64,000 nucleotides of DNA. Source: an uncultured Candidatus Binatia bacterium (GTDB lineage Bacteria > Desulfobacterota > Binatia > UBA9968 > CAXXLF01). Numbering within the stretch: position 1 is the first letter of the stretch; each line of letters opens with the position of its first letter. The position numbers and the translations under genes are program-made. The stretch lies in the NCBI GenBank assembly GCA_965218425.1, contig OZ244621.1, positions 353,368 to 417,367 on the forward strand. The letters are read 5' to 3'. The notes under the pieces were generated by a model that worked only from the letters and a program-made list of their open reading frames with translations, had not been told where the DNA came from and did not search any database. Of this stretch, positions 21,874 through 45,076 are shown in pieces.

Positions 21874-21986
21874 AGAATCTCCTTTTTTTGAACTGAAATA
21901 TTTAAGATGTTTTCCCTAAATACCATCCGGTCTGCGCCATTATGTTCTTTTAACAGATCAACGACAATTTGGGAAGGTTCCGAGCC

Positions 21987-23153: not shown

Positions 23154-23156
23154 ACC

Positions 23157-24140: not shown

Positions 24141-24316
24141 TTTAAAACCCTTCCTTTCCACTCACCCGGACGTGACACATTCCTGTCACGAATACGGGTT
24201 TTCCATATGACCAGAACATTTTCATGGGGCGGCACCCAACTGCCTACCCACTGAACAGCTTCCTTGAAGACAACAATTTGGTTAGACCGCTGCTTCATGA
24301 CTGGGAGAAGGGCCTC

Positions 24317-28235: not shown

Positions 28236-29444
28236 TTACGCGGCCGCGCCCGCTATCTTTTGCAGCGCCGGGCGCAGTGGAGACGGCACCTGGTGCTTCA
28301 TGATAATCTCCTTGCGCTCGCAGCGAGAATCGATCATCGCAATACATGCCTCCAAGGTTGCTCGGCCCCAGCGCACGTCGGGAAAGGACGGCTGACTCTC
28401 TCTGATGGCATCCACCAACGCCTGGATCTCCCCGGCACGTAGCTCTCGTTCAGTCATGAGAACTTCTTCCCGCCCTTTCTCCGTATACACGTATAGGCCA
28501 TCGGGGGATTGGCGGATATCTCCGTTCTCACAGCTTACGATCATGAGCCCGAAGAAATCCTGTTTTCTCTCTCCTCCAGCGCTAAACGCCTCGATGGAGT
28601 ACTGAGGAAGGTTATAAAACTCTTGTGCCGCAATCGGCCCTTTCGCTCTCGGCTTGGGTCCTAACATGGTGTTCTCGTCCACACGTCTCCCCCCTTCTCC
28701 GATCCCCCATGTTAGCTCGCGGATATCAAAATTCGCATAGCCGTTGAAGCTAACCATCGCCGTGGGCCCATCCTCAAAATCGATAAACGCGTGGTAGTCA
28801 CCCTCGACATCGTAGCTAGGGTGCCACTTTCCCGCCGTTCCACGCACACCACGAATCATCCCTCCAGCCAGATAGCGCACCACGTCCATCTGATGCGGTC
28901 CCTGCCGAAAGACAGAGCCACCCCCGCGCTTTGGGTCTAGTGTATGTGCCTCCCAGGGCCGTTGAATCCAGTCATTATACATCCACGTGTTGATGTGAAT
29001 GATCCTCCCCAGACGCCCGCTGGCAATCATGTCCCCCATTTTTCGAACGTAAGGGCGGTGAATGCGGCTGTGCCCTTGGACATACTTAACGCCATTACGC
29101 TCAATGGCATCAACCATGCGGTTCGCCTCGTCAATCGAGATGGCCATAGGCTTCTCACATATAACGTGCTTACCATGGTCCGCGGAGATGATCGTATGTT
29201 CGGCATGGAAATTATTGGGCGTGGCCACCCATACAGCATCCACGGGGCCGTGCTTGCACATATCCTCGATTTGCGTGAAGCCCTCGACGCCGAAGCGCTT
29301 TTTAAACCGGTCCACTTCGTCGGCTCGAATATCGCATACGGCCGTAAGCTCCGCACCTTCCGTTTGCTCGATACTCCCAAGCACCTGGCGCGCCGCGATG
29401 CCAATCCCGACGATCCCCACTCGGACAACAGTGTTCTCAGCCAT
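28236..29444 (-). CDS. Gfo/Idh/MocA-family NAD(P)-dependent oxidoreductase (cis-dihydrodiol dehydrogenase-like, Pht4/OphB-type)
   Basis: N-terminal Rossmann VRVGIVGIGIAARQVLGSIEQTEGAELTAVCD and a GFO_IDH_MocA C-terminal domain. Sits immediately downstream of two Rieske oxygenase genes. Confidence 0.65.
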   Translation of the reverse strand: MAENTVVRVGIVGIGIAARQVLGSIEQTEGAELTAVCDIRADEVDRFKKRFGVEGFTQIEDMCKHGPVDAVWVATPNNFHAEHTIISADHGKHVICEKPMAISIDEANRMVDAIERNGVKYVQGHSRIHRPYVRKMGDMIASGRLGRIIHINTWMYNDWIQRPWEAHTLDPKRGGGSVFRQGPHQMDVVRYLAGGMIRGVRGTAGKWHPSYDVEGDYHAFIDFEDGPTAMVSFNGYANFDIRELTWGIGEGGRRVDENTMLGPKPRAKGPIAAQEFYNLPQYSIEAFSAGGERKQDFFGLMIVSCENGDIRQSPDGLYVYTEKGREEVLMTERELRAGEIQALVDAIRESQPSFPDVRWGRATLEACIAMIDSRCERKEIIMKHQVPSPLRPALQKIAGAAA

Positions 29445-29518: not shown

Positions 29519-30772
29519 TCATTCGGGACGCGGCCGGGCAGTGCCGAATGGGACTTCAAAAACCTCGTGTCTGCTATCAAAGACTTCCTTCTTGGTTCGT
29601 ACGCGGCTCAGTTCGATTCCCTTCCGTCGCGCTCCTGCGCGGGTGTCCCGCTCTGAGCACCATCCTTCGAGGTCGATGGCCTTGTTGTCGCCCAGGTCAC
29701 GAATGATGTTCATAGGTTCCCCACCCCGCTCAACCACCTCGATCTGTTCCTTCAGCATCTTGCGATACATGATTATTCCGCGATCGGACATCCCCACGTG
29801 CTCTTCATCCCGCCCATAGATCTGCCCCTGGGTTTCCCAGGCCATCTTGTCCTGGCTATAGAAGGTATTCATTGTATATTCGCCATCAGGATAGGTCTGA
29901 GGCGGGGGGTCTTCCAGCGGCGGTTCCTCCGGTTGCGCAACAGGCTCCCCATCGTCGCTGGGTTTGAAAAGGACGACGTAGATTTCCGTATGGGTATCGT
30001 CCACGGGAACCCGCCAGTGCATAGCGCTCCAGATATCCGATTGCCGAAACATAGTAGGAAAGACGAGTGGATTGCCCCATCCGGATCCGGCAGTATCGCC
30101 TTCGTACTCCCAGCTTTTCAGTAGACCCCACTGAAACGGCTGGAAACCATACCGGGCAAACGGACGTCCCAAAAACCCGGTGGACATGGTGCTTCGTCCC
30201 GCCTTTTTGAAGGCATAGGCGTGGAGGATTGAGGTATGGACAAAATCCATTGTGTTCTCGACTGCCTGTAGCCAATTGCAGTTCAACGTCTCCTGGCGTT
30301 CGATTCTCCGGTGACCCCGGTCCCAAACGAGGATGTCCCACCGCGGTAACAAGGGAGCCGGTTCCGGTCCCATGTAGGCGAACAAGAGACCTGCGAGTTT
30401 CTGGACCGGGTAGGCCCTATGCCGGATACTTTCCTTGAATTTAGGATTGGGCTCGAAGGGCTGCTCAAGACAACTGCCGGAGCGGTCGTAAAGCCACCCG
30501 TGGTAAGGACACCTTAGGCCACCATTTTCCAGGAAACCATAGTACAGGGAAGTGCCCCTATGGGAGCAGTGCTCTTCCAGGAGACCGAATTCGCCCTTCT
30601 CGTCCCGAAACAGCACCAGATCCTCTCCCAAGACCTTGACCCGTTTTTTCGGACGGTCAGCGGTTAGCTCGCTTGCCGCTGTCACCGGATGCCAGTAGCG
30701 GCGCATCAGATTTCCACACGGGGTACCAGGTCCCACTTTGGTCAACAGATCGTTTTCATCCTTGGTAAGCAT
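29519..30772 (-). CDS. Rieske [2Fe-2S] non-heme iron oxygenase alpha subunit (phthalate dioxygenase/VanA/KshA-type), paralog 1
   Basis: Rieske CSHRGTSL...CPYHGW, mononuclear iron motif DFVHTSILH, N-terminus MLTKDENDLLTKVGPGTPCGNLMRRYWHP. Start taken at ATG 30772; the ORF is also open from a TTG at 30790. Confidence 0.8.
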   Translation of the reverse strand: MLTKDENDLLTKVGPGTPCGNLMRRYWHPVTAASELTADRPKKRVKVLGEDLVLFRDEKGEFGLLEEHCSHRGTSLYYGFLENGGLRCPYHGWLYDRSGSCLEQPFEPNPKFKESIRHRAYPVQKLAGLLFAYMGPEPAPLLPRWDILVWDRGHRRIERQETLNCNWLQAVENTMDFVHTSILHAYAFKKAGRSTMSTGFLGRPFARYGFQPFQWGLLKSWEYEGDTAGSGWGNPLVFPTMFRQSDIWSAMHWRVPVDDTHTEIYVVLFKPSDDGEPVAQPEEPPLEDPPPQTYPDGEYTMNTFYSQDKMAWETQGQIYGRDEEHVGMSDRGIIMYRKMLKEQIEVVERGGEPMNIIRDLGDNKAIDLEGWCSERDTRAGARRKGIELSRVRTKKEVFDSRHEVFEVPFGTARPRPE

Positions 30773-30786
30773 GCTCTTTGCTTCGC

Positions 30787-32127
30787 TCAACTACCGTTAC
30801 GGTTAACCTTCGCGGCATCGATCTTTGGCCTCGCCGCACCGTAGGGAACATCGACTATCTCATGCCGATTGTCAAAGATCTCATCCTTCGATTTCCCATG
30901 CGATTTGCCGCCGGCCCAATAGGGGTCCCGGTAAAGATCGGCTTCGTTTTGCCACCCCGCAAGCTCGATGCAGACGTTCTTCTCGGGGTCGCGTACAAGC
31001 CCCCAGGGATCCCCGCCCTGACCAACGATCTCGATCTGTTCCTTAAGCATTTTACGGAACATGATGATTCCCCGATCGGATTCACCCAGGTGCTCCTTTG
31101 AACGGTCAAATAGCGCACCTTGGGTCTCCCAGGCCATCTTGTCATGACTGAAGAAGGTATCCATTGTGTATTCGGCGTTGGGGAGCATCTGCGGTGGCAT
31201 GAATTGGACTAAAGGGTCCTCTCCCTCCTCCACCTCCTGACCATCCTCGCTCGGGCGGAAATGGACAATGATGAGCTCTGTACGGTAATCGTCAATAGGA
31301 ACGCGCCAGTGCATCTGAGCAGTAATGCGCAGCATGTTGGGAAAAATTAATGGATGCCCCCAGCCTTCACTGCCATGCTTGCCTCCATAAACCCAACTTT
31401 TTAACAGCCCCCACTCGAAGGGCTGGAACCCATAACTTTCAAACGGACGTCCATAACCAATTTCATCGGCAGGCGATCTGTTGCCATCCGGCTGGTATCC
31501 CAAGGGAAGGTTACCAGGGCTCATTACCCCCTGTTCTGATTGAGCTCGGGCCCTTTGTCTCAGTGTGTGGGAATGGAGGAAAAAAGTGTGGGTTACATCC
31601 ACGGAATTTTCTTCTGCCTGGAGCCAGTTACAGTTGAGGGTCTCTTGACGCAGGACGCTACGGTGACCATTTTTCCATGCTAGTATATCCCAACGGGGCA
31701 GGAGGGGCTTGCGGTCTGGGGGACCCATGTAGGTGAATAATAACCCGCCCAGTTTCGCAACCGGATAGGCCGGGTGTCTCACCTGTTCCCGAAACTTCGG
31801 GTTGGGCTCGAAAGGCTGCTCTAAACATTTTCCGGCCTTGTCGTAAAGCCAGCCGTGATAGGGACAACGGATGGAGCCACTTTCTATGAATCCATAGTAA
31901 AGAGACGTCCCACGGTGGGCACAGTGCTCACCAATAAGACCATAGCCACCTTTTTGGTCGCGAAAAAGGACAAGCTCTTCGCCCAGAATCTTGATTCGCT
32001 TCTTGGGCCGATCCTCCGTCAACTCCCTGGCTCCGGCTATGGGATGCCAGTAACGGCGCAGCAACTCACCGCACGGAGTCCCGCGGCCTACGCGGGTTAA
32101 AAGCTGGTTTTCTTCATTTGAGAGCAT
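30787..32127 (-). CDS. Rieske non-heme iron oxygenase alpha subunit, paralog 2
   Basis: CAHRGTSL...CPYHGW, VDVTHTFFLH, N-terminus MLSNEENQLLTRVGRGTPCGELLRRYWHP. 14 nt upstream of paralog 1. Confidence 0.8.
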   Translation of the reverse strand: MLSNEENQLLTRVGRGTPCGELLRRYWHPIAGARELTEDRPKKRIKILGEELVLFRDQKGGYGLIGEHCAHRGTSLYYGFIESGSIRCPYHGWLYDKAGKCLEQPFEPNPKFREQVRHPAYPVAKLGGLLFTYMGPPDRKPLLPRWDILAWKNGHRSVLRQETLNCNWLQAEENSVDVTHTFFLHSHTLRQRARAQSEQGVMSPGNLPLGYQPDGNRSPADEIGYGRPFESYGFQPFEWGLLKSWVYGGKHGSEGWGHPLIFPNMLRITAQMHWRVPIDDYRTELIIVHFRPSEDGQEVEEGEDPLVQFMPPQMLPNAEYTMDTFFSHDKMAWETQGALFDRSKEHLGESDRGIIMFRKMLKEQIEIVGQGGDPWGLVRDPEKNVCIELAGWQNEADLYRDPYWAGGKSHGKSKDEIFDNRHEIVDVPYGAARPKIDAAKVNRNGS

Positions 32128-32277
32128 AGGAAATTCCGACAATGAGGGAAGTACCACCGTTGGCGGGGACTGTCAACGACTTCAATGGGTTACCTATTAC
32201 CACCGATATCACTCAAAGGATCCGCTACCCGGGCTTTTCACTCCATCAGATCTCCACACTGAATTCGGCCAGGTTAA

Positions 32278-33564
32278 TCAAGCACCCGGCCGCTTTGCCG
32301 CTACTTCTGAAGCACGCCGTTCGACAGGGTCTATCTCATTGAGAGCAAAACGTTTAAGACCCGGGTAAAGGTAGTTGGTCCACAGCATGGATCCACCGAT
32401 AACAAGTCCGGCCGAAAATACGGCCAAACGGCCACCGAGAAGGGCTATGAACATTCCCGTGGGGGCCTGGCCAAGATGATTCAATCCCCTGAAGGTCATC
32501 TGGGAGATACTCATGACCCTGCCTCTCATTCCCTCCGTGCTCGAATACTGGAAGATGACGTTCCGCGTGGTTCCCCACATGGTGTCGCTCATGCCCAGGA
32601 TCAACAACAGAAAAAGCGAGAAGGGCCATGCCTGAGAGTACGCAAAAAGTAAGTAGGTCAACACATGGATGGTCCCAAGAACATAGAGGGTTCTTCCCGG
32701 GCGGCGAAAATTCCCCATGAAAATGAGTGCCAGCGCACCAGTGATGCTGCCCACTCCCCTGGCAGACTGCATGAGGCCGAATCCCCCTGCGCCAACCTGC
32801 AATATGTCTTTGGCAAATACCGTAAGAAACACCTGGTTCAGTGAAAAGAAGGATGCGAAAGCTTCCAACAGCAATGCTCCGCAGATGACCGGCTGGCGGC
32901 GGACGTAATTGAGGCCTTCAAAAACACTTCGGAGCAGTTGGGTGCGCCCCGCGCTCCCCACAGAAGTGGCACGTATGAAAGGAAGGGTGAACACCACCAC
33001 AAGATGAAATAGGGAATTTGCGGTATAAGCCCCGCCAATGCCCCAAGCGGTGATGATAATTCCCCCAAGGGCAGGACCAATGAGAGCGCTACCCCTAAAG
33101 AGTATCGAATTCATGGCCACCGCATTGGCAAGGGCACTTCTGGGTATAAGGCTGGGGAGCATGGCGCTTTGAGCAGGGCTCCCAACCGCCTGAACAGTGG
33201 CATTGGCAGCTGTAATAAGGTAGATGGACCATGCCGTAAGGGTACCGGTAAACGCGAGGGCCGCCAGAATAAACGACAGCACCACCTGGATGGAAGTGGT
33301 GATGAGGACGATAATTTTCCGCTCATAGCGGTCCGCAAACACGCCGCCAAAAAAACCAAAGCCGAAGGAGGGGGCGGCACGAAAAAGACCGTTTAAACCA
33401 ACACCGATGGCAGAGCCGGTGATCTCATAAAGCGCCCAGCTCTGAGCCATGATCTGCATCCAGACGCCACAGTGGGAGACAAATTGGCTCCACCAATAGA
33501 GGCGAAAATCACGGTAACCGAATGCTGGAAAGTAACCCTGCGCCGGAGGAGATTCAGGAGACAT
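32278..33564 (-). CDS. MFS transporter
   Basis: 428 aa with about 12 TM helices. Heads the minus-strand Rieske gene block. Confidence 0.7.
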   Translation of the reverse strand: MSPESPPAQGYFPAFGYRDFRLYWWSQFVSHCGVWMQIMAQSWALYEITGSAIGVGLNGLFRAAPSFGFGFFGGVFADRYERKIIVLITTSIQVVLSFILAALAFTGTLTAWSIYLITAANATVQAVGSPAQSAMLPSLIPRSALANAVAMNSILFRGSALIGPALGGIIITAWGIGGAYTANSLFHLVVVFTLPFIRATSVGSAGRTQLLRSVFEGLNYVRRQPVICGALLLEAFASFFSLNQVFLTVFAKDILQVGAGGFGLMQSARGVGSITGALALIFMGNFRRPGRTLYVLGTIHVLTYLLFAYSQAWPFSLFLLLILGMSDTMWGTTRNVIFQYSSTEGMRGRVMSISQMTFRGLNHLGQAPTGMFIALLGGRLAVFSAGLVIGGSMLWTNYLYPGLKRFALNEIDPVERRASEVAAKRPGA

Positions 33565-33706
33565 GAAGCGCCCAAGATAAGCCTCTCAATTGAAAAAGAC
33601 AACAACGATAGTGCGTTAAGAGCATGCCCTAGACGAAGATGCTGGAATACAACCACTGCTGTTCCACCCGCACGGAAGGACAGGCCATGGTCCCGCTGGC
33701 AACGTC

Positions 33707-35461
33707 TCACTGCTCTCGCCCGCTGAGCCTGACGTCCACCAGCGCCAGGGTGCTCTCCTTTTTCATGACTTGAAAGGCACGTTCGATGGCTGGCCTCAGG
33801 CCGGAAGGATTTTCCACGGGTCCTTCCGCGTAGGCCCCCTGAGCCCGGGCCAGACTCGCGAAATCAACTCTCGGATTCTGAATCTCCGTAGCGATGTGCT
33901 TGTTTGCCGTGGAACGCTGCCGCTGTTCCGATGTCCAGGTGACATGGGCCCCTTCACCTACATAACCTCCATTATCTAAAAGAAATACCAGTAGAGGTAT
34001 ATGATGGTGTACAGCAGTCCAAATGGAGCTAGGCACATAAAGAGATTCGCCGTCACCTATAAACGCTACACAAAAACCTCCTACCTTTTTCACCGCCAAC
34101 GCAGCCCCAATGGACCGGGACAACGCCGTTCCTAATCCTGCCGCCTTCTGGCCTCCCATGAGACTGCCTGGTTTTTCCAATTCCCAGAGGTTTCTTGTCC
34201 AACCTCCGATGTTCCCTGTCACGATCCATTCCTCCCCTTTCACGCAGTTCCAGACTGCATTGGAGAGGGTCGCCAACGAAATCTCCTCTCTGCTCGCATC
34301 CTTCTCAAGCTGGTCTCTTGCCCTTTTCTTTACCGCATCGTGAATTTCCTTGGCTCGGGCGAACCGTTCATCCGCCATCCTCTTTCGGTCGGGGTTCTTA
34401 TCCAAAATCTCCCGCAATTCTCGTGTCAGCTGGGGGAGCGCAAGGCTCGTATCCGCTGCCACGGTGAACTCCACCGGCCACACGCGATCGAAATCCAACG
34501 TGGTGCTTTTGATCCATTGATCGAACAGGCCGATATTAACGATTTTGGTACCGGGCTTGATGCGACTCTCCTTCTGCCTATTGTAGCGGTTCGAAATGGT
34601 GAAGGTCTGCTCGAGTTTATCCACATCCAATAGGATAATAACGTCGCTACGAGTGATCAAATCGCCCCCGGTTACATCAAGGGGATGAGTGCTGGGAAAA
34701 TTCAAACTCCCTCCCCCGTCGATGACCGGGATCGAACCGGCTTCCGCCAACTGGACTAAATAATGGACCGCTTGCGGGTTCCTTCCAACCTGATCCGCAA
34801 TAATGAGCGGTGCCTCAGCGTTGGCCAGCAATTCGGCAGTCTTCCTAAGAAAGGCAGGGTCACCCTGCACTCCAGTAGGAACCGCATATTTACTAATATC
34901 CGGGATCGTCACAGGCTCAGAAAGTTTTGCTTCCTGCCAACCTGCATCGAGGGCTATGTAAACCGGTCCCTTGGGCTCCGTCATGGCCACCCGGTAGGCT
35001 CGTATAAAAGATTCAGGGACGCTCTCGGGATCATGAGGCTGATCGTCCCACTTGACATACTCCCTGACCAGGTTTCCTTGGACCAACGCCGTGTGTACCC
35101 AGTCGATCCACGGTCGCCTCCCTTTAAGGCTCATGGGGCCTGTACCGCTCATGATGATTACAGGGGTTCGGTCCACATAGGCATTGTATATGGCCATGGC
35201 AGCATGCAGAGTACCCACCACATTATGAACCAAAGCCACTGCCGGTTTTCCGGTGGCCCTCCCATATCCCATGGCCACTCCAACGGCTATCTCCTCATGT
35301 AAGCACTCGATGATCTCGGGGGTCTTATTTTCACCAAAGTTAATGATCGAATCCAGCAAACCTCGATAGGTAGCACCAAGATTCGCGGGGGCATACTCGA
35401 TCCCATACTGCTGCATCATTTCAACGACGACATCCGAACCCCATTCTGCTCTACCGGCCAT
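33707..35461 (-). CDS. thiamine diphosphate-dependent enzyme (ALS/benzoylformate decarboxylase family), second copy
   Basis: 584 aa with ThDP motif IGDGESLYVPSSIWTAVHHHIPLLVFLLDNGGY. Confidence 0.7.
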   Translation of the reverse strand: MAGRAEWGSDVVVEMMQQYGIEYAPANLGATYRGLLDSIINFGENKTPEIIECLHEEIAVGVAMGYGRATGKPAVALVHNVVGTLHAAMAIYNAYVDRTPVIIMSGTGPMSLKGRRPWIDWVHTALVQGNLVREYVKWDDQPHDPESVPESFIRAYRVAMTEPKGPVYIALDAGWQEAKLSEPVTIPDISKYAVPTGVQGDPAFLRKTAELLANAEAPLIIADQVGRNPQAVHYLVQLAEAGSIPVIDGGGSLNFPSTHPLDVTGGDLITRSDVIILLDVDKLEQTFTISNRYNRQKESRIKPGTKIVNIGLFDQWIKSTTLDFDRVWPVEFTVAADTSLALPQLTRELREILDKNPDRKRMADERFARAKEIHDAVKKRARDQLEKDASREEISLATLSNAVWNCVKGEEWIVTGNIGGWTRNLWELEKPGSLMGGQKAAGLGTALSRSIGAALAVKKVGGFCVAFIGDGESLYVPSSIWTAVHHHIPLLVFLLDNGGYVGEGAHVTWTSEQRQRSTANKHIATEIQNPRVDFASLARAQGAYAEGPVENPSGLRPAIERAFQVMKKESTLALVDVRLSGREQ

Positions 35462-36208
35462 GGTTCACCTCCATTAGTTTTCCAACGATACGCCTTTTGA
35501 GATCTTTCTTGTACAGCGAGTCCAGTCGCGCCTTCAATACATCCGCCTAGGTTCGCCTGTCAAGTTATGGTTGGCTCGCCGACAGAAATTGTGGCGGCGA
35601 CATCTACCCCACCTTATCCAACAGGGCAATCTGGCGAGCGCTCATTTTCCATCCCTATTCCTTTAGGCCTCGGAGACTCCCTTCACTCCACGGGACTCTC
35701 GCAACGACCCACCGGGCCAGCGCTCGCACGAATCTTCCGGATCTCAGATTAGCCGTGGGCGGACTCCCGCTTTCATACGGCGCCGACCTCGATGGGTATC
35801 CCGCTGCTCCGTCCAGTTCCGCTCAGCAAGCCCCCTCAGCCCACAGCCGATGCGAAGGAGCTGGTGTGCCTGAGCGGAAGTTTGACCCTGAAGGGTGCAA
35901 GCCTCTGCGAAGCTGAGGATAAGCGGCATCGACTGTTTGAGCGCAGCGAGTTTCGAGGCTGCCCGAAGCGAGCGGCTAAGGCTTCCCATCGAGGGACCAC
36001 TGAAGCAAAGGGACACCAGTTCCGGCACAAGAACGCTCAACTCCTGCCAGGACAAGCTGCTACGACGAACACACCCATACGTCTTATAAAAGAGACCGGT
36101 TTTAAGTTGTCCTTCCACCTGCGGTGTGATAGGGAAAAATCGTAGGAGAACGCAAACTTAGACGTTTTCGAGCCCCCCTAACAAACCCACTATGGGAGGA
36201 AGATTGCC

Positions 36209-37471
36209 ATGCTACCCAAAGAGAGCAATGAGCTGATTACTCGAACGGGACCGGGTACGCCTATGGGTGAGTTGATCAGACGATATTGGATCCCCGCCTT
36301 GTTGTCAGAGGAAATCACTCAGCCGGACTGCCCCCCGGTGCAGGTGAGGATCCTGGGTGAGGAGCTCGTTGCCTTTCGCGACACCAAGAGAAAGATTGGC
36401 CTCCTGAATGAACACTGCTCCCACCGGGGAACATCACTCTTTTATGGCCGAAACGAAGACTGCGGCCTACGGTGTATCTACCATGGCTGGAAGTACGACG
36501 TGGAAGGAAACGTTGTGGACACTCCGGCGGAGCCCGCTAACAGCGACTTTAAGAAAAAGCTGCGCCACCCTGCCTATCCCACCGTGGAAGTGGCCGGGAT
36601 TGTCTTTGCTTATTTAGGTCCTAAAGAAAAGATGCCCTTGTTTCCCATGTATGAATGGGCTGAGCTTCCCCAGGACCACACCTATGTTACCAAGTGTCTA
36701 CAGGACTGCAACTATCTGCAGGGCCTTGAAGGCGAATGCGACTCGTCCCATCTTTCCTTCCTGCACCGCGAGTTCAGCAAAGACCGCGTACAAGCGTTGT
36801 ACCAAAGGGATAGCGCGCCCAAATATGAAATCGAAGAAACCGATTTCGGCCTGAGGCTCATCGCTACCCGTAAGGCGGGTGCCGACCAAACCTACATCAG
36901 GGTATCCAGTTTCACTACACCCATTGCCTGCTGGGTACCGGCACGTGGCCGCGAAACCCATATCTACGTACCGGCAGATGACACCCATAGCTGGAGATAC
37001 GATCTTGGGTTCCTCAAGGATAGAGCCGTACGCGACGATGAGGTCCACCGGCGCAAACAGATCGGGCCTGATTATCGCAGGATACGAAACATCCACAACC
37101 ACTACCTGCAGGACAGGCAGGTACAAAAAACGATCAGTTACACCGGAATTGAGGATTTTCTAAACCATGACTCTTGCGCCACGGAGACTATGGGCCCCCT
37201 CTATGACCGCAGCAAGGAACATTTAGGGGTTAGTGACACCGCGGTCATTGCCATGCGCAAGTACTTGTTGGATGCTGTTAAAACTCTGCAGGAGGGTAAA
37301 GAACCCCCGCACATCGTGCGAGACCCTGCAAAGAACAACTTCGGCCACGTGGATACCCTAGCCCAAGTGATTCCTTCGAACATACCCTGGCGAGAGTTCT
37401 TCACACACCTAACCAAAACAGGTCAAGCGAAGGGCTCGGCGACGGGCAAAACGAGGCAAAAGGCTTCTTAG
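36209..37471 (+). CDS. Rieske non-heme iron oxygenase alpha subunit, paralog 3
   Basis: CSHRGTSL...CIYHGW, CDSSHLSFLH, N-terminus MLPKESNELITRTGPGTPMGELIRRYWIP. RBS gggagg upstream. Confidence 0.8.
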   Translation: MLPKESNELITRTGPGTPMGELIRRYWIPALLSEEITQPDCPPVQVRILGEELVAFRDTKRKIGLLNEHCSHRGTSLFYGRNEDCGLRCIYHGWKYDVEGNVVDTPAEPANSDFKKKLRHPAYPTVEVAGIVFAYLGPKEKMPLFPMYEWAELPQDHTYVTKCLQDCNYLQGLEGECDSSHLSFLHREFSKDRVQALYQRDSAPKYEIEETDFGLRLIATRKAGADQTYIRVSSFTTPIACWVPARGRETHIYVPADDTHSWRYDLGFLKDRAVRDDEVHRRKQIGPDYRRIRNIHNHYLQDRQVQKTISYTGIEDFLNHDSCATETMGPLYDRSKEHLGVSDTAVIAMRKYLLDAVKTLQEGKEPPHIVRDPAKNNFGHVDTLAQVIPSNIPWREFFTHLTKTGQAKGSATGKTRQKAS

Positions 37472-37528
37472 CTCGCCTGATTCCGATGTTTTTTAGGCAA
37501 AATTCGCCCGGGTATTGTACGACCTATC

Positions 37529-38290
37529 CTATACCCAACCCCGATTCCATCGCTCGCCTTTTTTAACCTTGTCGGCGTAATAGTTCCACTCGGCAGAGTG
37601 TTGGGCCGGCGCCGCTCCCCTCCCAAGCTCCCGAGCACGCGCCATGAGCTTTGCCGAGGTGGCCTGAATGGACTGGATAAATTCCGGTGTTGGACCCGTG
37701 TACCCAAGCATGTGTGCCATGGCCTGCATTTTCGCAGTGCGCTCTAAATAGAGGGCGTTCATGCAGGCTTCGTCCACCGTCTTTCCAACCGAGACGATGC
37801 CATGTCCCTTGATGATCACCGCGGGGGCCTGACCAAGGGTCTTGGCCAAGTCCGCTCCCTCCTGCGCGTCAATGATAAAAATGGGGTCCGGATAGATGGG
37901 AACGCCTTTGCCGAATCGTTTCGACTGTTGGTGCATGTTATACACCGTCTTATCGGCCATACTGAGGGCAATACACATGGGTGCATGGGAATGAACGGCG
38001 GCGGTCACGTCTGGCCGGGCCTTGAATGCCTCGCTGTAGATGGCCGCCTCCATGGGTATGGTTCCAACACCGGACAGTTTGTTCAGCGAGTAGTCGAAGC
38101 GAACGAACCAGTCTTTGACTCCCGGCTCCTCCGGGGGGCGAAAAATCTTCACCGCGATGGATTCGGAATCCGGGATTCGGGTGGCCACGTGACCCCAGAT
38201 ATCCCCCATTTCCCATTCGAGGATCGACGAGGCAATCCTCAACTCTTCTTCCAATACATCAATGTCTGACATGCACCCCGCCTTTTGCAT
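37529..38290 (-). CDS. class II aldolase/adducin-family protein (3,4-dihydroxyphthalate decarboxylase / L-fuculose-phosphate aldolase-like)
   Basis: Metal-binding histidines in ...WGHVATRIP...AAVHSHAPMCIA...HGIVSVGKT. Its start overlaps the stop of the upstream SsuA-fold gene by 1 nt (TAATG). Confidence 0.65.
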   Translation of the reverse strand: MQKAGCMSDIDVLEEELRIASSILEWEMGDIWGHVATRIPDSESIAVKIFRPPEEPGVKDWFVRFDYSLNKLSGVGTIPMEAAIYSEAFKARPDVTAAVHSHAPMCIALSMADKTVYNMHQQSKRFGKGVPIYPDPIFIIDAQEGADLAKTLGQAPAVIIKGHGIVSVGKTVDEACMNALYLERTAKMQAMAHMLGYTGPTPEFIQSIQATSAKLMARARELGRGAAPAQHSAEWNYYADKVKKGERWNRGWV

Positions 38291-39252
38291 TATGTTTCAA
38301 GCGTGCCTGCCGCAAAGAAATCCTCTAATGCGAGCTTCTTGCTGGTGATGCCCTGCTCGGCATTATAGGTAAGATAGCTATCGATCATGTTCTTGTTTGC
38401 CCTGACCCCATATTTCCAAGGGTCTCCCCAATCCTTTATCTGTTCCTCCAGGCGCTCTCGTAGATAGACCACTGAGAATCCCGCCCGGTCGTTCAGGATA
38501 TCCTCATAGGCCAGCTTTTTTGCCTCCTCAAAGGCGGTAAAGAGCTTGCCGGCCAGATCCGGATTCCCACGGTCCAGTTTCTTGCTCATTACGATCTGGT
38601 GCATGGTGGCGTAAATGCCGGTCTCCCGATACAGCTGCAGGTCCTCCTCCACGTAATTGGGAAATAGACGCATAATCGACGGGTCTTGCTCGAGAGTACG
38701 GAAAGCCTTACCGTCTGAAATATCGGTGATGATGGCGTCTACCTCTCCATCCAGCAGGCGGTTTATTGGAGTCTTCTTGGGGTCCTCTGCAGCTTCAACC
38801 TTGGGTTCGGTTTTATGGAGGGGAAAGACCCTGCGTGGGATCGAGGTCACCCACCGCAGCTTGGAGGTGTCCACGCCATGCCTGTGTTGAAGCAGGCCCT
38901 GCAACCAGATGGTAATGGACGTTGGATAGGAGTTGCTCCCGATACGCTTGCCCTCGAGGTCCTTGGGTGAGTTGATCCCTCGGTCCGCGCGGCAAAACAG
39001 AAAGGTGTAAACCGGTTTCCTCTTTGAGAATACCGGCAGGCCGATCAGTTCCCAACCTGCTTCGATGGCTGGCAACACGTAGCCCGCGTTCAAGTCACAG
39101 AGCCCAAAAGCACCTTCTCGAAGCTCCGGTACGTCGTTGAAAACCATGGAGCTGGTGCGCACAGGCTTTAACTCAACACCCTCGATTTTCACCCGCCCTT
39201 CGAGCAAGGGCATGGTGTGATCGTAACGCATTATTGGAAACGGTACTTCCAT
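38290..39252 (-). CDS. cytoplasmic SsuA/NMT1-fold (COG0715-like) protein of the 4,5-dihydroxyphthalate decarboxylase-like family, copy 1
   Basis: SBP type II fold signature (LEGKRIGSNSYPTSITIWLQGLL...GVD...GEVDAII). No signal peptide. Start taken at ATG 39252 (MEVPFPIMRYD...), which has a G-rich RBS; the ORF is open to 39309. Confidence 0.55.
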   Translation of the reverse strand: MEVPFPIMRYDHTMPLLEGRVKIEGVELKPVRTSSMVFNDVPELREGAFGLCDLNAGYVLPAIEAGWELIGLPVFSKRKPVYTFLFCRADRGINSPKDLEGKRIGSNSYPTSITIWLQGLLQHRHGVDTSKLRWVTSIPRRVFPLHKTEPKVEAAEDPKKTPINRLLDGEVDAIITDISDGKAFRTLEQDPSIMRLFPNYVEEDLQLYRETGIYATMHQIVMSKKLDRGNPDLAGKLFTAFEEAKKLAYEDILNDRAGFSVVYLRERLEEQIKDWGDPWKYGVRANKNMIDSYLTYNAEQGITSKKLALEDFFAAGTLET

Positions 39253-39364
39253 TTTGCAACCCCCCGACAAAGCTGGTGCAGAATTACCACCCTCCCCAAT
39301 GGCAGTCAAGGGGGAACGACTCTATCATGCGATCCGGTGCGTGTAGCACCTCAGTCCTCGGCAA

Positions 39365-39562
39365 GGAAGGGCTCGGGGGCCCGTCCCTCAGCGGGAGCCG
39401 ATGGGTTTATACATCGAGGTCCCGCCATTAAATTCGAAATGCCAAGCTGGATTAAGCATCCAGTATCGGACGTCTCCCTTTCTTCGGAACAGGCCCCCCT
39501 GCACTCTCATCCGGAAGACGACGCGGGGGAGTAAAACGGAAGACCGTGGGCATCGAACACGG
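39365..39562. repeat. copy 1 of a roughly 195-bp conserved intergenic element shared with 42310-42505
   Basis: Three highly similar blocks (cagcgggagccgatggg..., cagtatcggacgtctccctttcttc..ggcccccctgc, gtgggcatcgaac) in the same order and orientation as copy 2. Confidence 0.6.
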
Positions 39563-39629
39563 ATCACCTGACATTTACAGGCCTATTGGCCTCGGTCGGA
39601 GGCGGATCTTCAACGCTTTTTCGCGAGCC

Positions 39630-40847
39630 TCACTTGACGAGATAGGGCCAGTGCTCACGCCAGCTTTCCTCTGCAGGGAACACTTCATGGACGGTGTCCA
39701 CATGGGTCATGTCGTTTTTTGCGGCATCCGTAATGATATGAGGGGGCTCCGTACCGTTCTGAAATGACTTCACCGCATTTAGAAGATAGTTACGCACCGC
39801 GATGACGGCTTTGTCGCTCATGCCCAAGCGCTCCTTCGAACGATCGAAGATGCCAGAATAGGACATGGTCTCCGTAGCGCAGGCATCCTGCACCATGATC
39901 TCCTTGATGCCGGTGAAATTCTGACTTCGCATCATCTCCGCGTCCTGGAGGTAGTCGTTGCTGAGATTGGGGATTTTCCGATAATCAGGACCGATGGAGG
40001 ACCGACGGTGCATATCCTCCGGCGTGACGGGCCGGTTCAGATAACCAAGGTCGTATCTCCACGTACGGGTGTCGTTGATGGGCGCATACATGTGAATTTC
40101 CCGGTTAAAAACCGGCACCCAAACCTCCACGGGCATAACAAAGCTCGAGACGCGTATATAGTGTTCCTTTGGATCGGGCTGGGATCGAGCGGCGATTAAA
40201 CGCACCCCGAAGTCAGTCTCCTCTGTCTCGTATTCGGCTGTCAGGTCCTGGAGCACGGGTCTACCTCGACCGAACTTTTGGGCACCATGGTGCATGATGG
40301 CCACATGGGCGGTATCACACTCCCCTTCCAGTCCCTGTAACCAATTGCATTCCAGGAGGACCTTGGTGACGTAAACATTCTCCTTTGGCGCCTGCGTAAA
40401 GCGATAGTTGGGAAAAAGAGGCATTTTCTCCCTGGGACCCAGGTAAGCCCAGATAATTCCGGCAACCTCATGCGTTGGATAGGACAGGTGTTTGACTTTA
40501 TCCCTGATGACACTGCGGTCTGGTTCTCCGGGGGTATCTAGTACGTTTCCCTCCACGTCATATTTCCAACCATGATAGATACAGGTCAGGCCACACTCTT
40601 CGTTGCGTGCATAAAACAGCGAGGTTCCGCGATGGGAACAATGTTCGCCCAGCAATCCGACCCTGCCCTCACTGTCTCGGAAGGCCACCAATTCTTCGCC
40701 CAGTAACCGCACACGCACGGGACGGCCGTCTCGCTCGGAGATTTCTTCCGAGAGCAGCGCAGGCAGCCAGTAGCGCCGCATCAATTGACCAAGCACCGCC
40801 CCGTTGTCCGTCCTGGTAATGAGATCATTGTCTTCTTTGCTCAGCAT
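39630..40847 (-). CDS. Rieske non-heme iron oxygenase alpha subunit, paralog 4
   Basis: CSHRGTSL...CIYHGW, CDTAHVAIMHHG, N-terminus MLSKEDNDLITRTDNGAVLGQLMRRYWLP. Confidence 0.8.
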   Translation of the reverse strand: MLSKEDNDLITRTDNGAVLGQLMRRYWLPALLSEEISERDGRPVRVRLLGEELVAFRDSEGRVGLLGEHCSHRGTSLFYARNEECGLTCIYHGWKYDVEGNVLDTPGEPDRSVIRDKVKHLSYPTHEVAGIIWAYLGPREKMPLFPNYRFTQAPKENVYVTKVLLECNWLQGLEGECDTAHVAIMHHGAQKFGRGRPVLQDLTAEYETEETDFGVRLIAARSQPDPKEHYIRVSSFVMPVEVWVPVFNREIHMYAPINDTRTWRYDLGYLNRPVTPEDMHRRSSIGPDYRKIPNLSNDYLQDAEMMRSQNFTGIKEIMVQDACATETMSYSGIFDRSKERLGMSDKAVIAVRNYLLNAVKSFQNGTEPPHIITDAAKNDMTHVDTVHEVFPAEESWREHWPYLVK

Positions 40848-40995
40848 AAGCGTCCTCCTTACTCCTCACAGCTATACAGCCAGATGAAGAAGGCACATGA
40901 GACACGAATAACATTACACCCTGCGCCCGATTCCCTCCTCACTCAGTACTAAACCGCATTGCCCACTGCTCTCTGCTACTATGCCGTGGTGTCTC

Positions 40996-42024
40996 TTAAG
41001 TGTCCCTTACGGCCGTGTGAAATAGATCGTCTACACTAGACCGCCCCTGGGTTAAGCCCTGCTCCGCGGAGCTGTGAAACATCATCTCCAGCATTTTTCG
41101 ATTGGCCTTCAAGCCCAATGGAAAGGGATCTTCTCCAAAGATCTTGGTTTGCCTTCTAATATCGTCTGCCAAGAACAATAGATATCCAGCCCCCTGTTGT
41201 TTTGCCCTTTCATAGGCTACTTCCTTGCTTTTCTGAAATGCCTTGAAGAGTTCCATGGCCACCCAGGGCTCTTTTTCCAAAACCTTGTTCTTGACTATCA
41301 CCATATGGTTTACGGGGATCACCCCCGTTTTGCCATAGAAATCACCAATAATCTGCCGGCCGAAATCGGGAAATAATTTTCGGATTCTTGGATTATCCTC
41401 GATGATGGTGCCTCCATGACGGTCGATAGGCTTGGCCACGCCAGGGTACTGGCGCGCAATCACACCATAGGCAGCGTCCAGCTCTCCCCTGTCTAGCATC
41501 ACATCAAGAGACTGATCTTCCTTGAGCCAGTGAAGGTCAATACCGGTGGGCGGGGTCTCGGCCAGCCCCAGCTCACCTCCGTGGCTGTGCTCAACTGTTC
41601 GGCCGTTGAACCAGACAATATCTTTGGCGCCAATTCCATAGAGCTCCTTCAGCACCGCCTTCATCCAGACCGCCGCAGTCATATTGTAATCGGGGACGCC
41701 CACTCTTTTGCCTGCGAAGTCTTTTAGCTCGTTGATCTTGGCCCCCGTATTCACAAACAAGGTAAGCCAGACAAAGGCCTTGGAGAGAAAGACCGGCAGA
41801 CCGCTCCATTGCCATCGGGTACCGTCGCCCCGCTCCTTGGTCATGGAAAAACTGGAGATGGACATTTCAGACACGTCGAATTCTTCATTTTTTAGATTGC
41901 GGTAAAAGAGGTTTCCCGGATCAATGATGACAAACTCCAGCTCGATGCCTTTTGGTTTTACAGTACCGTCGGCTAAAGGCTGTATGCGGGGATTGTTGGA
42001 AAATCCGATGGTAAGCTTGAGCAT
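40996..42024 (-). CDS. cytoplasmic SsuA/NMT1-fold protein (4,5-dihydroxyphthalate decarboxylase-like family), copy 2
   Basis: MLKLTIGFSNNPRIQPLADG... starts directly in a beta-strand with no signal peptide. LKDFAGKRVGVPDYNMTAAVWMKAVLKELYGIGAKDIVW fits the SsuA-like fold. Confidence 0.55.
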   Translation of the reverse strand: MLKLTIGFSNNPRIQPLADGTVKPKGIELEFVIIDPGNLFYRNLKNEEFDVSEMSISSFSMTKERGDGTRWQWSGLPVFLSKAFVWLTLFVNTGAKINELKDFAGKRVGVPDYNMTAAVWMKAVLKELYGIGAKDIVWFNGRTVEHSHGGELGLAETPPTGIDLHWLKEDQSLDVMLDRGELDAAYGVIARQYPGVAKPIDRHGGTIIEDNPRIRKLFPDFGRQIIGDFYGKTGVIPVNHMVIVKNKVLEKEPWVAMELFKAFQKSKEVAYERAKQQGAGYLLFLADDIRRQTKIFGEDPFPLGLKANRKMLEMMFHSSAEQGLTQGRSSVDDLFHTAVRDT

Positions 42025-42309
42025 AGTGCCTCCTCGGTTTTAATGAGATGGTGAGTTTACGCGGCATTCCCGTAGCGGATCATAACAGAACATTGGCGTA
42101 TGATGTCAACCTGAGACTGGCTATCAGGCTAGTGGTGCGGTTGCGTGGATGAGAACCCTGGTCCTAACGATGAAATGAACATGAGTTTGCACAAGGAGTC
42201 GCCGTCCCTTTTCCTCGACAGGCTCGGGATGGTGAGCGAAGTCGAACCACGATTCAGCGGTGCTTCGGCGGGAAGGATTGCTTGCCGATGTAAAAACCGG
42301 CGAGGAAAT

Positions 42310-42505
42310 CATGGGCTCGGAAACCCGCCCCCCAGCGGGAGCCGATGGGCTCATACCTCGAGGCCCCGTCGTTTGATCCGGCACGTCAACTTGGCATGAA
42401 CCTGCAGTATCGGACGTCTCCCTTTCTTCAGGCCAGGCCCCCTGCGCCCTGGATTCAATGAGCGACGAGGGGGCGAGGATGAAGAACGTGGGCATCGAAC
42501 GTGGT
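42310..42505. repeat. copy 2 of the roughly 195-bp conserved intergenic element
   Basis: See 39365-39562. Lies in the divergent region between the SsuA-fold gene and the epimerase gene. Confidence 0.6.
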
Positions 42506-42759
42506 GCTTCAGAAATTCACTGGCTTATTGCCCACGGCCTGAAGACTCGCGCACCGAAGAGCACGGATGGATTGGGAGAAATTGGTCTTGGCGGCCTGCG
42601 CCGTATGAAAACCAGAGGCCTCCCACTCGCAGGACCCTCGTCGCAATAGACCGCATATCCGAATCCACGAGGACCGACTGGGGCTTTCAATGGGATCGCT
42701 ATCCGTATAATAAGGTTTGAAGTGAATTCTTTATTAGGGCGCTGATAGGAGGATATGCC

Positions 42760-43707
42760 GTGATTCTAATCATTGGTGGCATGGGATTCATCGGTCTGAA
42801 TACCGCTCTCCGTCTGCTGGACGTGGGAGAGAGTGTTGTCATTACGCAGTACAGCATGCGTCGAGTGCCCGCCGTTCTTGAGCCGGAGTTGGATAAACGG
42901 GCCTTTGTTGCACCAATGGACGTGACAAAAGGCTATGAGGTGATGGACGTTGTTCACCGATACAAAGTGGAGAGCATCATCTCATTTGCGGCCCCTCCCG
43001 CCCGAGGCATCAGCGCTCAGGAAGATTACCGCATCTATACGGACGGGCTACAGAACACCCTCGAGGCGGCACGGGTTTTCGGCCTGCACAGGGTATCCCT
43101 GGCCAGTTCCACCTCGGTGTACGGCAGCCTTCAGGAAGGGCCCTTCCGGGAGGACATGCCGCTACCGGTTCAGGCCAAGACCCAAATAGAGGCGTTCAAA
43201 AAAGCCATGGAGGTCCACGCATTCCACTATTCAACTCGGATCGGTCTAGACTTGGTTGCGCTCCGCATCGGCAGCATCTACGGGCCCCACTACTACAGCA
43301 TGTTCAACCCCATGAGTCGCATGTGCCAGGCGGCGTTGAAGGGTTCAGACCCCGACTTCTCCGATCGCCCCGCCGGCTCCATACGCGAGGATGACGAAGG
43401 CGATTGGACCTATGTCGCGGATCTAGCCAGAGGTATCGAGCTGGTACACAGGGCGGGAAAGCTTTCCCACAACACTTATAACGTAGGCTCAGGCAAGGCC
43501 ACTTCCACCAGGCGCATATTTGAAGCGGTGCAAAAGATCATACCAGGTGCGCGCTGCTCTGCTCTCAAACCCGGGCGAAGCGGCGCCATGCCCATAAACC
43601 CGGTTATGGACTTAAGCCGAATTAGCAAGGATGTCGGCTACGAACCTGAGTACGATATCGACTCCGGTATGGCGGCCTACGTGGAACATCTCAAGGGACA
43701 GCCCTAA
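42760..43707 (+). CDS. NAD-dependent epimerase/dehydratase (extended SDR) family protein
   Basis: N-terminal ILIIGGMGFIGLNTALRLL Rossmann motif. 315 aa. Confidence 0.7.
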   Translation: MILIIGGMGFIGLNTALRLLDVGESVVITQYSMRRVPAVLEPELDKRAFVAPMDVTKGYEVMDVVHRYKVESIISFAAPPARGISAQEDYRIYTDGLQNTLEAARVFGLHRVSLASSTSVYGSLQEGPFREDMPLPVQAKTQIEAFKKAMEVHAFHYSTRIGLDLVALRIGSIYGPHYYSMFNPMSRMCQAALKGSDPDFSDRPAGSIREDDEGDWTYVADLARGIELVHRAGKLSHNTYNVGSGKATSTRRIFEAVQKIIPGARCSALKPGRSGAMPINPVMDLSRISKDVGYEPEYDIDSGMAAYVEHLKGQP

Positions 43708-43753
43708 CAGCAAGAAGGCTCTTCAGCCCTCTAAGCGAAACCCACAGGACCCG

Positions 43754-45076
43754 TCACGATTCCGCTTGATTTACACCGACACCTTCCCATCGTGAGGCGG
43801 AAAGGATGTCACGATAGGCGTCGAGCCAATGGGTTCCTTCATCGGCCACAAAATGGCCGCCACGAACCCGGTCATAGTATTCCGGGTGATCTGCGCTGGG
43901 GGGCAGGGTCTTATCCTTCTCGTAAGCAAGCGCGCTCCGAATCAAGAGACGACGCACCCGGGCAATCATAATGTCGCTAGGGGCCAGATGCTCTATGGTG
44001 CGGTCGAGGATGGCTCCCATGCTCTCCTGGATCGCCTGGTCCTGCATTTGGACTCCTTCAATTCCGGTATAGCTTTGGGTACGCTGGACCTCGCGGTCAA
44101 TACCATAGTCGTTAGTTGCGTTGAGGGAGAGCCGCCAGCGACCATACCAATCCGTGGTGTTGGGGAGATAGGGATAGTTTCGTGAGGCGCCGGCAATCTC
44201 ACCGTCGCGGACGGGTCGGCCTTGATAAGGATAGGCTCCCTGCTTGATGAGCTCCACGATCATGGTGTGAGTGTCGTCCATAGGCACATAGGCGCGAGTC
44301 AACACATTGGTTTGCAATGAATTGATGGGGGGCATGGTCCAGAAAGGAAAAAGGAAATGGCCGAACCGCCAGTAGGTCTGTCCCTCATGGGCCGGTCGGT
44401 GGGCGGCGTAGATGTAGCCGTAATCGGTTTCCTGGATTTTGTATTCCGGCGCCCGGTTAGCAACCACGAACTGTTGTTGAGCGTCTGGCTGAAAGGCGCT
44501 GCGGTCGATCTTACCGAAATGCATAATCCCCACGTGGGAGGTATCCAGCTCCCCCTCCAACCCCTGGAGCCAGTTGGCCTCCCGCTGGGTAAAACGGATG
44601 CTGAGCTGATCCTCTGGCACTAACGTGGATTCCACAGGGGGAAAGGCGGGAGGAGCCTCCTGGCGCTCACCCATGTAAACATAGACAACCCCGTTGCGCT
44701 CCACAATCTTGTAGGCCCCGGCTTTCACCTTGTGTTTGAAATCTAAATCCGGCGGCAAATTGGCTTGATCGACGCAATTGCCTCGCACGTCGAACTTCCA
44801 TCCGTGATAGACGCATCGGATTCCGTCCTCTTCGTTCCTACCAAAAAAGAACGAGGCGCCGCGGTGCGGGCAGCGGTGGTCCATGATACCCGCTCGACCC
44901 GAGGAATCGCGAAACGCGATGAGCTTCTCCCCCAGGAGCACCAGCCGCATGGGATCGCCGTCAGCTTTGAGCTCCGCAGACATGGCCGCGGGGATCCAGA
45001 ATTGCCGCATTAACTCCCCCATGGGCGTACCACGCCCAACCCGGGTCAGGATCTCGTTATCGCGTATGTTGGTCAT
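43754..45076 (-). CDS. Rieske non-heme iron oxygenase alpha subunit, paralog 5
   Basis: CPHRGASF...CVYHGW, LDTSHVGIMHFG, N-terminus MTNIRDNEILTRVGRGTPMGELMRQFWIP. Its start overlaps the nitroreductase stop by 4 nt. Confidence 0.8.
   Translation of the reverse strand: MTNIRDNEILTRVGRGTPMGELMRQFWIPAAMSAELKADGDPMRLVLLGEKLIAFRDSSGRAGIMDHRCPHRGASFFFGRNEEDGIRCVYHGWKFDVRGNCVDQANLPPDLDFKHKVKAGAYKIVERNGVVYVYMGERQEAPPAFPPVESTLVPEDQLSIRFTQREANWLQGLEGELDTSHVGIMHFGKIDRSAFQPDAQQQFVVANRAPEYKIQETDYGYIYAAHRPAHEGQTYWRFGHFLFPFWTMPPINSLQTNVLTRAYVPMDDTHTMIVELIKQGAYPYQGRPVRDGEIAGASRNYPYLPNTTDWYGRWRLSLNATNDYGIDREVQRTQSYTGIEGVQMQDQAIQESMGAILDRTIEHLAPSDIMIARVRRLLIRSALAYEKDKTLPPSADHPEYYDRVRGGHFVADEGTHWLDAYRDILSASRWEGVGVNQAES

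Follow-up and report, generated by a model that had tools for sequence, protein, structure and literature searches.

Five Rieske oxygenase alpha subunits, here R1 to R5, are encoded in a catabolic island of a 64,000-nucleotide stretch of DNA (the window) that derives from a metagenome-assembled genome (MAG) of an uncultured Candidatus Binatia bacterium, and the question raised by this locus is where these enzymes obtain their electrons. Rieske oxygenases consume two single electrons per turnover, which are delivered to the Rieske cluster (PMC8649396, PMC4064121). An earlier note on this DNA had remarked that the five alpha subunits stand without a beta subunit, a dedicated reductase or ferredoxin, or a regulator, and our scans of the window and of its small open reading frames (ORFs) agree. 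The reading that we favour, at a probability of about 0.75, is that five intact, alpha-only oxygenases obtain their electrons in trans, from shared components whose genes lie in another part of the genome.

All five proteins carry the Rieske domain (PF00355, E-values of 1.6e-20 to 2.2e-15) together with LigXa_C (PF19301, 42–153 bits against a cut-off of 27) in Pfam searches, and they can be aligned with one another throughout their sequences. The closest structures in the PDB are those of PDO_KF1 (7FJL/7V25), a phthalate dioxygenase (PDO), and RO_CH34 (7FHR), the E-values lying between 1e-49 and 1e-90. R4 matches 7FJL/7V25 (E = 2.5e-84; residues 1–399 in the case of 7FJL), R5 matches 7FHR over nearly its full length (E = 5.7e-90) and R1 matches 7FHR over its N-terminal half (E = 1.5e-51), with 9INA also among the top matches of R1, R4 and R5. 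Identity to PDO_KF1 is 28–41% for the five (41% for R3), the alignment being near full-length in R3–R5. In PDO_KF1 numbering, the Rieske ligands C70, H72, C89 and H92 are invariant in R1–R5, and the bridging D178 and the iron ligands H181, H186 and D343 are kept in all five; the roles of these residues are taken from PMC8649396. As judged from these alignments, R1–R5 belong to the alpha-only PDO family. PDO_KF1 is an α3α3 hexamer (PMC8649396), and the beta subunits are missing because R1–R5 are of this alpha-only type, an explanation that the earlier note had already offered and that the structural matches bear out.

Membership of this family does not extend to an identical substrate pocket. 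Comparison of the residues that bind substrate in PDO (Arg207, Arg244, Arg231, Ser179, Ser182, Phe278, Phe280 and Phe339) reveals that Arg207 is substituted in all five proteins (by L, M, L, P and F), as are Ser182, Phe278 and Phe280, and that Arg231 and Arg244 are kept in R3–R5 only. By this residue test none of R1–R5 is a strict phthalate 4,5-dioxygenase, and as Arg207, Ser182, Phe278 and Phe280 are replaced, the substrates are probably other carboxylated aromatics.

The absence of partner genes was examined with Pfam scans of every long, non-overlapping ORF of the 64 kb and of small intergenic ORFs, and with a six-frame scan for Fe–S motifs over 15–50 kb. Between 19.8 and 47 kb, the Pfam scans gave no Ring_hydroxyl_B beta subunit, no FNR-like or Pyr_redox_2 (glutathione-reductase-type) reductase and no LysR, IclR, MarR, GntR, TetR or other helix-turn-helix regulator, and Pfam together with the six-frame scan gave no Fer2, Rieske or [3Fe-4S] ferredoxin. 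Fe–S signatures in the six frames were confined to R1–R5, the ferredoxin gene that starts at 47038 and a chance out-of-frame match within R4; the Pfam scan of the intergenic ORFs gave nothing either, and on these two scans a hidden small ferredoxin or regulator was rejected. That a dedicated reductase and regulator might lie just beyond the window had been allowed for in the earlier note; in the 10 kb past each window end, taken from the 363,605-bp metagenome contig to which the window belongs, no reductase, ferredoxin or pathway regulator is present. The left flank encodes DHDPS, an ABC uptake system and another LigB gene, whereas the right flank encodes a 320-aa sigma-70 factor, RidA, a luciferase-like monooxygenase, Amidohydro_2, PgpA, a protease and a penicillin amidase. 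The need for an external electron donor, and the lack of a local one, thus stand for the window, its small ORFs and both 10-kb flanks.

The island may be set against related systems. PDO_KF1 and PDO_DB01 are class IA, two-component enzymes that work with a phthalate dioxygenase reductase (PDR); the island proteins are of the same alpha-only type with the same ligand sets, and their surroundings share the accessory types of these systems, namely a Gfo/Idh/MocA dehydrogenase and 4,5-dihydroxyphthalate decarboxylase homologues. In contrast to the PDO systems, the window and its 10-kb flanks contain no linked PDR-type reductase, that is, no nearby FNR-like reductase with the C-terminal plant-type [2Fe-2S] domain of class IA. 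On plasmid p1 of Burkholderia sp. RPE67 (AP014579.1, ∼1.062–1.081 Mb) the same set of Rieske alpha subunit, Gfo/Idh/MocA protein, class II aldolase and decarboxylase is accompanied by a FAD_binding_6 + NAD_binding_1 + Fer2 reductase and by MarR and LysR regulators, none of which the island has; this reductase, linked to a homologous cluster, therefore shows the kind of partner that is missing. LigXa, the 5,5'-dehydrodivanillate O-demethylase oxygenase of Sphingobium sp. SYK-6, has the LigXa_C catalytic domain in common with R1–R5, a match at the level of the domain only. It is partnered by the ferredoxin LigXc and the reductase LigXd. Like the island, the ligXa cluster has no ferredoxin or reductase among its listed genes, ligXc and ligXd not being included; it has a MarR-type regulator, DdvR, which the island lacks (PMC6874591).

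As no local donor is encoded, delivery in trans is therefore the best-supported model, and we infer both the existence of the partners elsewhere in the genome and their sharing. The oxygenases would draw on one shared component, or on a few, from another part of the ∼4.5-Mb genome: an FNR-type reductase with a [2Fe-2S] domain, or a reductase with a small ferredoxin. There is precedent for such an economy: the five KshA proteins of Rhodococcus (KshA1–5) all use one KshB (PMC4064121), and sphingomonads serve seven ring-hydroxylating oxygenases with a sole ferredoxin/reductase set (PMC4048848). In both cases paralogous oxygenases outnumber the shared chain and are unlinked to it, and the island is alike in having several oxygenases, although the shared components were identified and tested in Rhodococcus and the sphingomonads, whereas in the uncultured Binatia they are only postulated.

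To place the arrangement among its relatives, GTDB species representatives were surveyed, where 444 stretches hold a relative of R4; 79 loci were kept, mostly from Binatia (many labelled 'delta proteobacterium'), Chloroflexota and Verrucomicrobiota, and about 10 kb around each Rieske gene was inspected using our own ORF calls. The closest species-level genome is again that of an uncultured Candidatus Binatia bacterium, with an R4 that is 94% identical. At least two PDO-family genes occur in 15 of the 79 loci, decarboxylase-like NMT1 neighbours in 28 and class II aldolase-family neighbours in 24–26, and the module of Rieske, NMT1-like and aldolase II genes recurs in 24–28; bicupins and Amidohydro_2 proteins are recurrent as well. 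Throughout these ∼10-kb neighbourhoods of the 79 loci, a Burkholderia PDR-type reductase query gave no blastp match, FNR motifs and plant-type Fer2 motifs never stood together in one ORF, and nothing qualified as a credible glutathione-reductase-type reductase. Pfam scans of the closest 150 unassigned neighbours (within 1.2 kb) and of the next 150 (to 2.9 kb) returned SBP, NMT1, ECH, GST, DUF218, RidA and hydrolase families and three small HTH_3 proteins, with no electron-transfer family among the 25 most frequent of each scan (floor of two members) for these 300 neighbours. Four loci (L073, L076, L077 and L079) have small 2[4Fe-4S] ferredoxin ORFs at a distance of 5–9 kb from the Rieske gene, next to a conserved but unrelated gene for 246 aa; these ORFs were not counted as partners. 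Three other Binatia assemblies retain the gene order ferredoxin fusion, decarboxylase-like, nitroreductase, epimerase, decarboxylase-like, R4, decarboxylase-like, aldolase II, R3, TPP2, likewise with no reductase, and across the four assemblies R3, R4 and their partner genes are syntenic and 82–95% identical. The absence of partners is real, and it is characteristic of the clade and not special to the window. Nor is the arrangement unusual for these enzymes: the partnerless state is the rule in the 79 loci and has precedents in KshA/KshB, the sphingomonads and the ligXa cluster. The want of a regulator had been called unusual for an aromatic catabolic cluster: the gap is real and sets the island apart from cultured Proteobacteria and Bacillota (on a Peribacillus plasmid, one LysR and two IclR genes accompany the same modules), yet it is common to related uncultured lineages and not unusual there.

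Three points weigh against delivery in trans. The reductase or ferredoxin in question is itself deduced, from a search that covered the window and its 10-kb flanks. The translational coupling of R5 to a nitroreductase gene (a 4-nt overlap in the window and in the related locus L020) could mean a functional link. The lists of 25 families would miss a single reductase among the 300 neighbours, although here the motif and blastp screens argue otherwise. With these points taken into account, the finding remains a modest one that does not overturn the current view of Rieske oxygenase biology: the arrangement is normal for its clade and not a puzzle. It assigns an aromatic catabolic island with several oxygenases to the uncultured phylum Binatota and shows that PDO-type oxygenases in Binatota and neighbouring uncultured phyla are routinely encoded without donors or local regulators. 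Pathway calls that require a linked reductase will under-count such systems in metagenomes, and expression of these enzymes will require a surrogate or genome-mined reductase.

Among the alternatives, it is quite unlikely that the nitroreductase-fold FMN protein is a dedicated NAD(P)H-dependent reductase of R5, and perhaps of the other oxygenases, which would make it a new type of reductase. It had been listed as a local redox candidate and is the sole flavoprotein within the island; its stop codon overlaps the R5 start by 4 nt (ATGA) in a three-gene operon, as in L020. The start of the gene is most likely the ATG at 45813, giving 246 aa, and not the TTG at 45870. The linkage to a Rieske gene is, however, restricted to the window and L020. 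R5 is cut to residues 1–131 in L021 and absent in L011–L013, where the decarboxylase-like/nitroreductase pair nevertheless persists intact, and orthologues of the nitroreductase at 65–76% identity (L003, L005, L006 and L008) have no Rieske gene within 7–8 kb and are neighboured by solute-binding-fold genes or GntR. On this synteny, the nitroreductase was rejected as a Rieske reductase. The protein also has no Fe–S domain; its nearest structures are 4DN2 (a nitroreductase), iodotyrosine deiodinase and BluB, and the NCBIfam BluB model scores 77 bits, under its cut-off of 150. Nitroreductase-fold enzymes are mostly obligate two-electron flavoenzymes that act on small substrates, and the protein is more likely a substrate-directed flavoenzyme that works with the decarboxylase-like protein. 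The nitroreductase gene is paired with a gene of periplasmic-binding-protein fold in each setting, namely a decarboxylase-like NMT1 gene in the window, SBP_bac_6 in L003 and L008, and NMT1_3 in L006. Together the two look like a conserved two-gene module across lineages.

Also improbable in our estimate are a broader form of this idea, in which a non-canonical donor (the nitroreductase-fold flavoprotein coupled to R5, or a housekeeping ferredoxin such as the YfhL-type fusion) operates across Binatia, Chloroflexota and related uncultured phyla and accounts for the constant lack of a linked canonical reductase beside their PDO-family oxygenases, and, as a lesser possibility, a heteromer of R1 and R2. 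If true, a non-canonical donor would constitute a new class of Rieske oxygenase electron-transfer chain. The start of R1 overlaps the end of R2 by 4 nt (30787–30790); the two are 62% identical and form a distinct subgroup, the nearest relative of which is the Burkholderia RPE67 oxygenase at 40–42% identity. This translationally coupled pair may constitute a heteromeric α3/α'3 oxygenase, of which we know no example in the PDO family. A Chloroflexota locus (L062, 4592–6905) likewise bears an R2-like/R1-like tandem, with a spacing of 8 nt, which together with the overlap in the window suggests this possibility.

It is very unlikely that the oxygenases draw on some generic low-potential carrier with a gene close by, be it the YfhL-type ferredoxin fusion at 47038 or the orphan CoxM/CoxS pair at 60.1–61.5 kb (FAD and 2×[2Fe-2S]), both of which the earlier note had named as redox candidates. 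For neither of these Fe–S proteins is a local partner obvious (the window and the 10 kb past its right end gave no CoxL), and the ferredoxin gene and the R5 operon are divergently oriented. Over its N-terminal 78 residues, the fusion scores 104.6 bits with the NCBIfam YfhL model (cut-off 86). Far from being unusual, as it had been described, it belongs to a large conserved family with 3502 homologues, and among the matches listed these are full-length at 53–79% identity, Methylomirabilota included. In L100 and L101 it keeps its own 157-aa partner (in L101 also ManC, VIT1 and TrmI) with no Rieske genes nearby. The gene is, by these comparisons, a conserved core gene that flanks the island; its candidacy as an island component was rejected, as it occurs in genomes that have no island at that site. 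CoxGMS lies ∼13 kb from the island, beyond housekeeping genes (tRNA methyltransferase, LGT, D-Tyr-tRNA deacylase, SpoU and ABC genes), and nothing links it to the oxygenases. We know of no Rieske oxygenase that uses a YfhL-type or CoxMS-type donor. In the window, the ferredoxin fusion heads a three-gene block (47038–48994) with a 155-aa membrane protein (weak CopD match) and a 120-aa protein of no known family, and the fusion and the 155–157-aa protein remain adjacent from Binatia to Methylomirabilota.

The view that the island is decaying, such that the oxygenases are non-functional and the missing partners reflect gene loss, is likewise hardly tenable. Insertion sequence (IS) transposases at 305–1324 and 13624–14703, a split ManC and a UDP-glucose dehydrogenase fragment near the island, and the truncation of R5 in a relative would fit such a view, but R1–R5 are full-length with every ligand intact, R3, R4 and their partners are conserved in sequence and synteny in the four assemblies, and the partnerless arrangement extends over 79 loci from several phyla. 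Loss of partner genes through misassembly or chimerism, conceivable in a metagenome assembly, can practically be set aside, as the same proteins occur on two contigs of independent sources (363,605 bp and 4,459,497 bp) and the gene order is reproduced in L002, L011, L012, L020 and L021.

The remaining genes of the island (Table 1) point to phthalate-like chemistry. Four proteins had been labelled 'SsuA-fold', and while the operon order with the nitroreductase and R5 stands, three of the four are cytoplasmic homologues of 4,5-dihydroxyphthalate decarboxylase and probably act as decarboxylases. The proteins encoded from 40996, 38290 and 45833 are 28–32% identical over their full length to the annotated Burkholderia decarboxylase by blastp (32% for the last), and no hydrophobic leader or signal peptide is seen at their N-termini. 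That at 45833 matches the 4,5-dihydroxyphthalate decarboxylase structure 9JP7 over residues 7–320 (E = 6e-38); that at 40996 is 32% identical over its full length to plasmid genes annotated with this function (tblastn, E = 1e-50) and matches the Burkholderia decarboxylase at 2e-61 by blastp. The Gfo/Idh/MocA protein, 39% identical (E = 2e-85) to the product of the gene beside the PDR-type reductase in the RPE67 cluster, is likely a cis-dihydrodiol dehydrogenase; between the class II aldolase-family protein and its RPE67 counterpart, identity is 33%. In ∼15 of the 79 loci a TPP1-like gene comes after the Rieske gene, and for this reason the two thiamine diphosphate (ThDP) enzymes, TPP1 and TPP2, were considered as donors. 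The idea of ThDP/FAD enzymes as electron donors was rejected: in the PDB, TPP1 comes nearest to BbmA and acetolactate synthase and TPP2 to benzoylformate decarboxylase, and both are more likely C–C lyases or decarboxylases than electron carriers. In the favoured reading, the island comprises peripheral pathways for carboxylated or lignin-derived aromatics, in which each oxygenase sits with partners like those of the phthalate pathway (a Gfo/Idh/MocA or short-chain dehydrogenase/reductase (SDR) dehydrogenase, decarboxylase-like, aldolase II-like and ThDP enzymes) and the products would feed LigB-type ring cleavage.

Table 1. Genes and other features of the window, in order of position.
Feature	Coordinates	Strand	Assignment and remarks
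tRNA-Arg(CCT), tRNA-Gln(CTG), tRNA-Glu(CTC)	18128..19233		ARAGORN and Rfam; left edge of island
Amidohydro_2	from 19801	-	Pfam; lower-pathway block (19801..25450)
Bicupin	from 20776	-	Pfam; lower-pathway block
OCD/mu-crystallin	from 21987	-	Pfam; lower-pathway block
Two LigB-type extradiol dioxygenases	from 23157 and 24317	-	Pfam; lower-pathway block, ending at 25450
NMT1_3 binding protein	from 25475		Pfam
TPP1, ThDP enzyme, 553 aa	26490..28151	-	Pfam TPP_enzyme_N/M/C
Gfo/Idh/MocA oxidoreductase	28236..29444	-	Pfam; downstream of R2-R1
R1, Rieske alpha subunit, 423 aa	29519..30790	-	Pfam Rieske + LigXa_C; divergent PDO-family subgroup
R2, Rieske alpha subunit, 456 aa	30787..32157	-	Pfam Rieske + LigXa_C; tandem paralogue of R1
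MFS transporter	from 32278		Pfam
TPP2, ThDP enzyme	33707-35461		Pfam TPP_enzyme_N/M/C
R3, Rieske alpha subunit, 420 aa	36209..37471	+	Pfam LigXa_C (1.2e-44) + Rieske; PDO family
Class II aldolase/adducin-family protein	37529-38290		Pfam Aldolase_II; follows decarboxylase homologue 38290..39309
Third decarboxylase homologue, 339 aa	38290..39309	-	Pfam NMT1; blastp 1e-39 to Burkholderia decarboxylase
R4, Rieske alpha subunit, 405 aa	39630..40847	-	Pfam Rieske + LigXa_C; PDO family
4,5-Dihydroxyphthalate decarboxylase homologue, 342 aa	40996..42024	-	tblastn, blastp; upstream of R4
NAD-dependent epimerase/SDR	from 42760	+	Pfam
R5, Rieske alpha subunit, 440 aa	43754..45076	-	Pfam Rieske + LigXa_C
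Nitroreductase-fold FMN protein, 246 aa	45073..45813	-	Pfam PF00881; BluB/iodotyrosine-deiodinase-like subgroup
4,5-Dihydroxyphthalate decarboxylase homologue, 323 aa	45833..46804	-	NMT1/SsuA fold; first gene of decarboxylase-nitroreductase-R5 operon
YfhL-type 2[4Fe-4S] ferredoxin fusion, 272 aa	47038..47856	+	NCBIfam YfhL; C-terminal Cys4/coiled-coil extension
CoxG-CoxM-CoxS operon	60133..61979	-	Pfam

In the Pfam scan the catabolic island spans ∼19.8–46.8 kb (27 kb), with nearly all genes on the minus strand. It starts right after the tRNA-Arg/Gln/Glu cluster, and Rfam and ARAGORN searches gave nothing besides these three tRNA genes at 18128–19233. The G+C content is 0.54–0.57 within the island and 0.48–0.52 around it, and in L101 two class Ic aminoacyl-tRNA synthetase genes (Glu/Gln type) take up the place upstream of the ferredoxin block. 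Possibly, the island is a flexible region of the genome. Beyond the ferredoxin block, the gene for mannose-1-phosphate guanylyltransferase (ManC, 48995–49895) is broken into two parts, one of 129 aa (beta-helix) and one of 57 aa (NTP_transferase), but is intact in relatives (361–371 aa in L012 and L101), and an 83-aa UDP-glucose dehydrogenase fragment lies at ∼51988–52239 in the gap next to it. Both resemble pseudogene remnants, which together with the two IS transposases suggests local gene decay.

Transcription of the island would probably rely on sigma-70-type promoters with unlinked or global control, as opposed to a local regulator of the LysR, IclR or MarR type. A TTGACA-N19-TGTTATGAT site that is conserved in the window and L020 lies ∼75 nt upstream of the start of the 40996 gene and fits plain sigma-70 promoters. 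A non-coding repeat of ∼240 nt occurs on the minus strand at 42304–42542 and 39360–39600, the copies being 73–77% identical. Its 26-nt core, CGAAGAAAGGGAGACGTCCGATACTG, is invariant, and a conserved long-range stem is plausible, with a few compensatory changes. The repeat is also present in three unrelated metagenome contigs (L017, 2397–2540, minus strand; L018, 230–373, plus strand; L019, 1–63, minus strand), where it sits upstream of a 124-aa glyoxalase gene. The repeat has no Rfam match, and it was found at neither of the two syntenic sites of the 94%-identical L020, nor in 1.4 Mb of related loci, on which ground a riboswitch-like cis-regulator in place of a protein regulator was rejected. 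As it is absent from these loci, and as its copy A lies upstream of the conserved promoter-like site, we read the repeat as a strain-specific and probably mobile insertion, which resembles a small mobile element more than a conserved regulator. A second intergenic repeat lies at ∼35650–35810 (plus strand) within the 747 bp that separate the ThDP gene from R3, with an inverted copy at 42593–42626, and a similar sequence fills the R4/NMT1 spacer of L020 (∼11330–11450), at the place where the window bears the first repeat. The spacers of the island seem to have been colonised by small repeats that differ from strain to strain.

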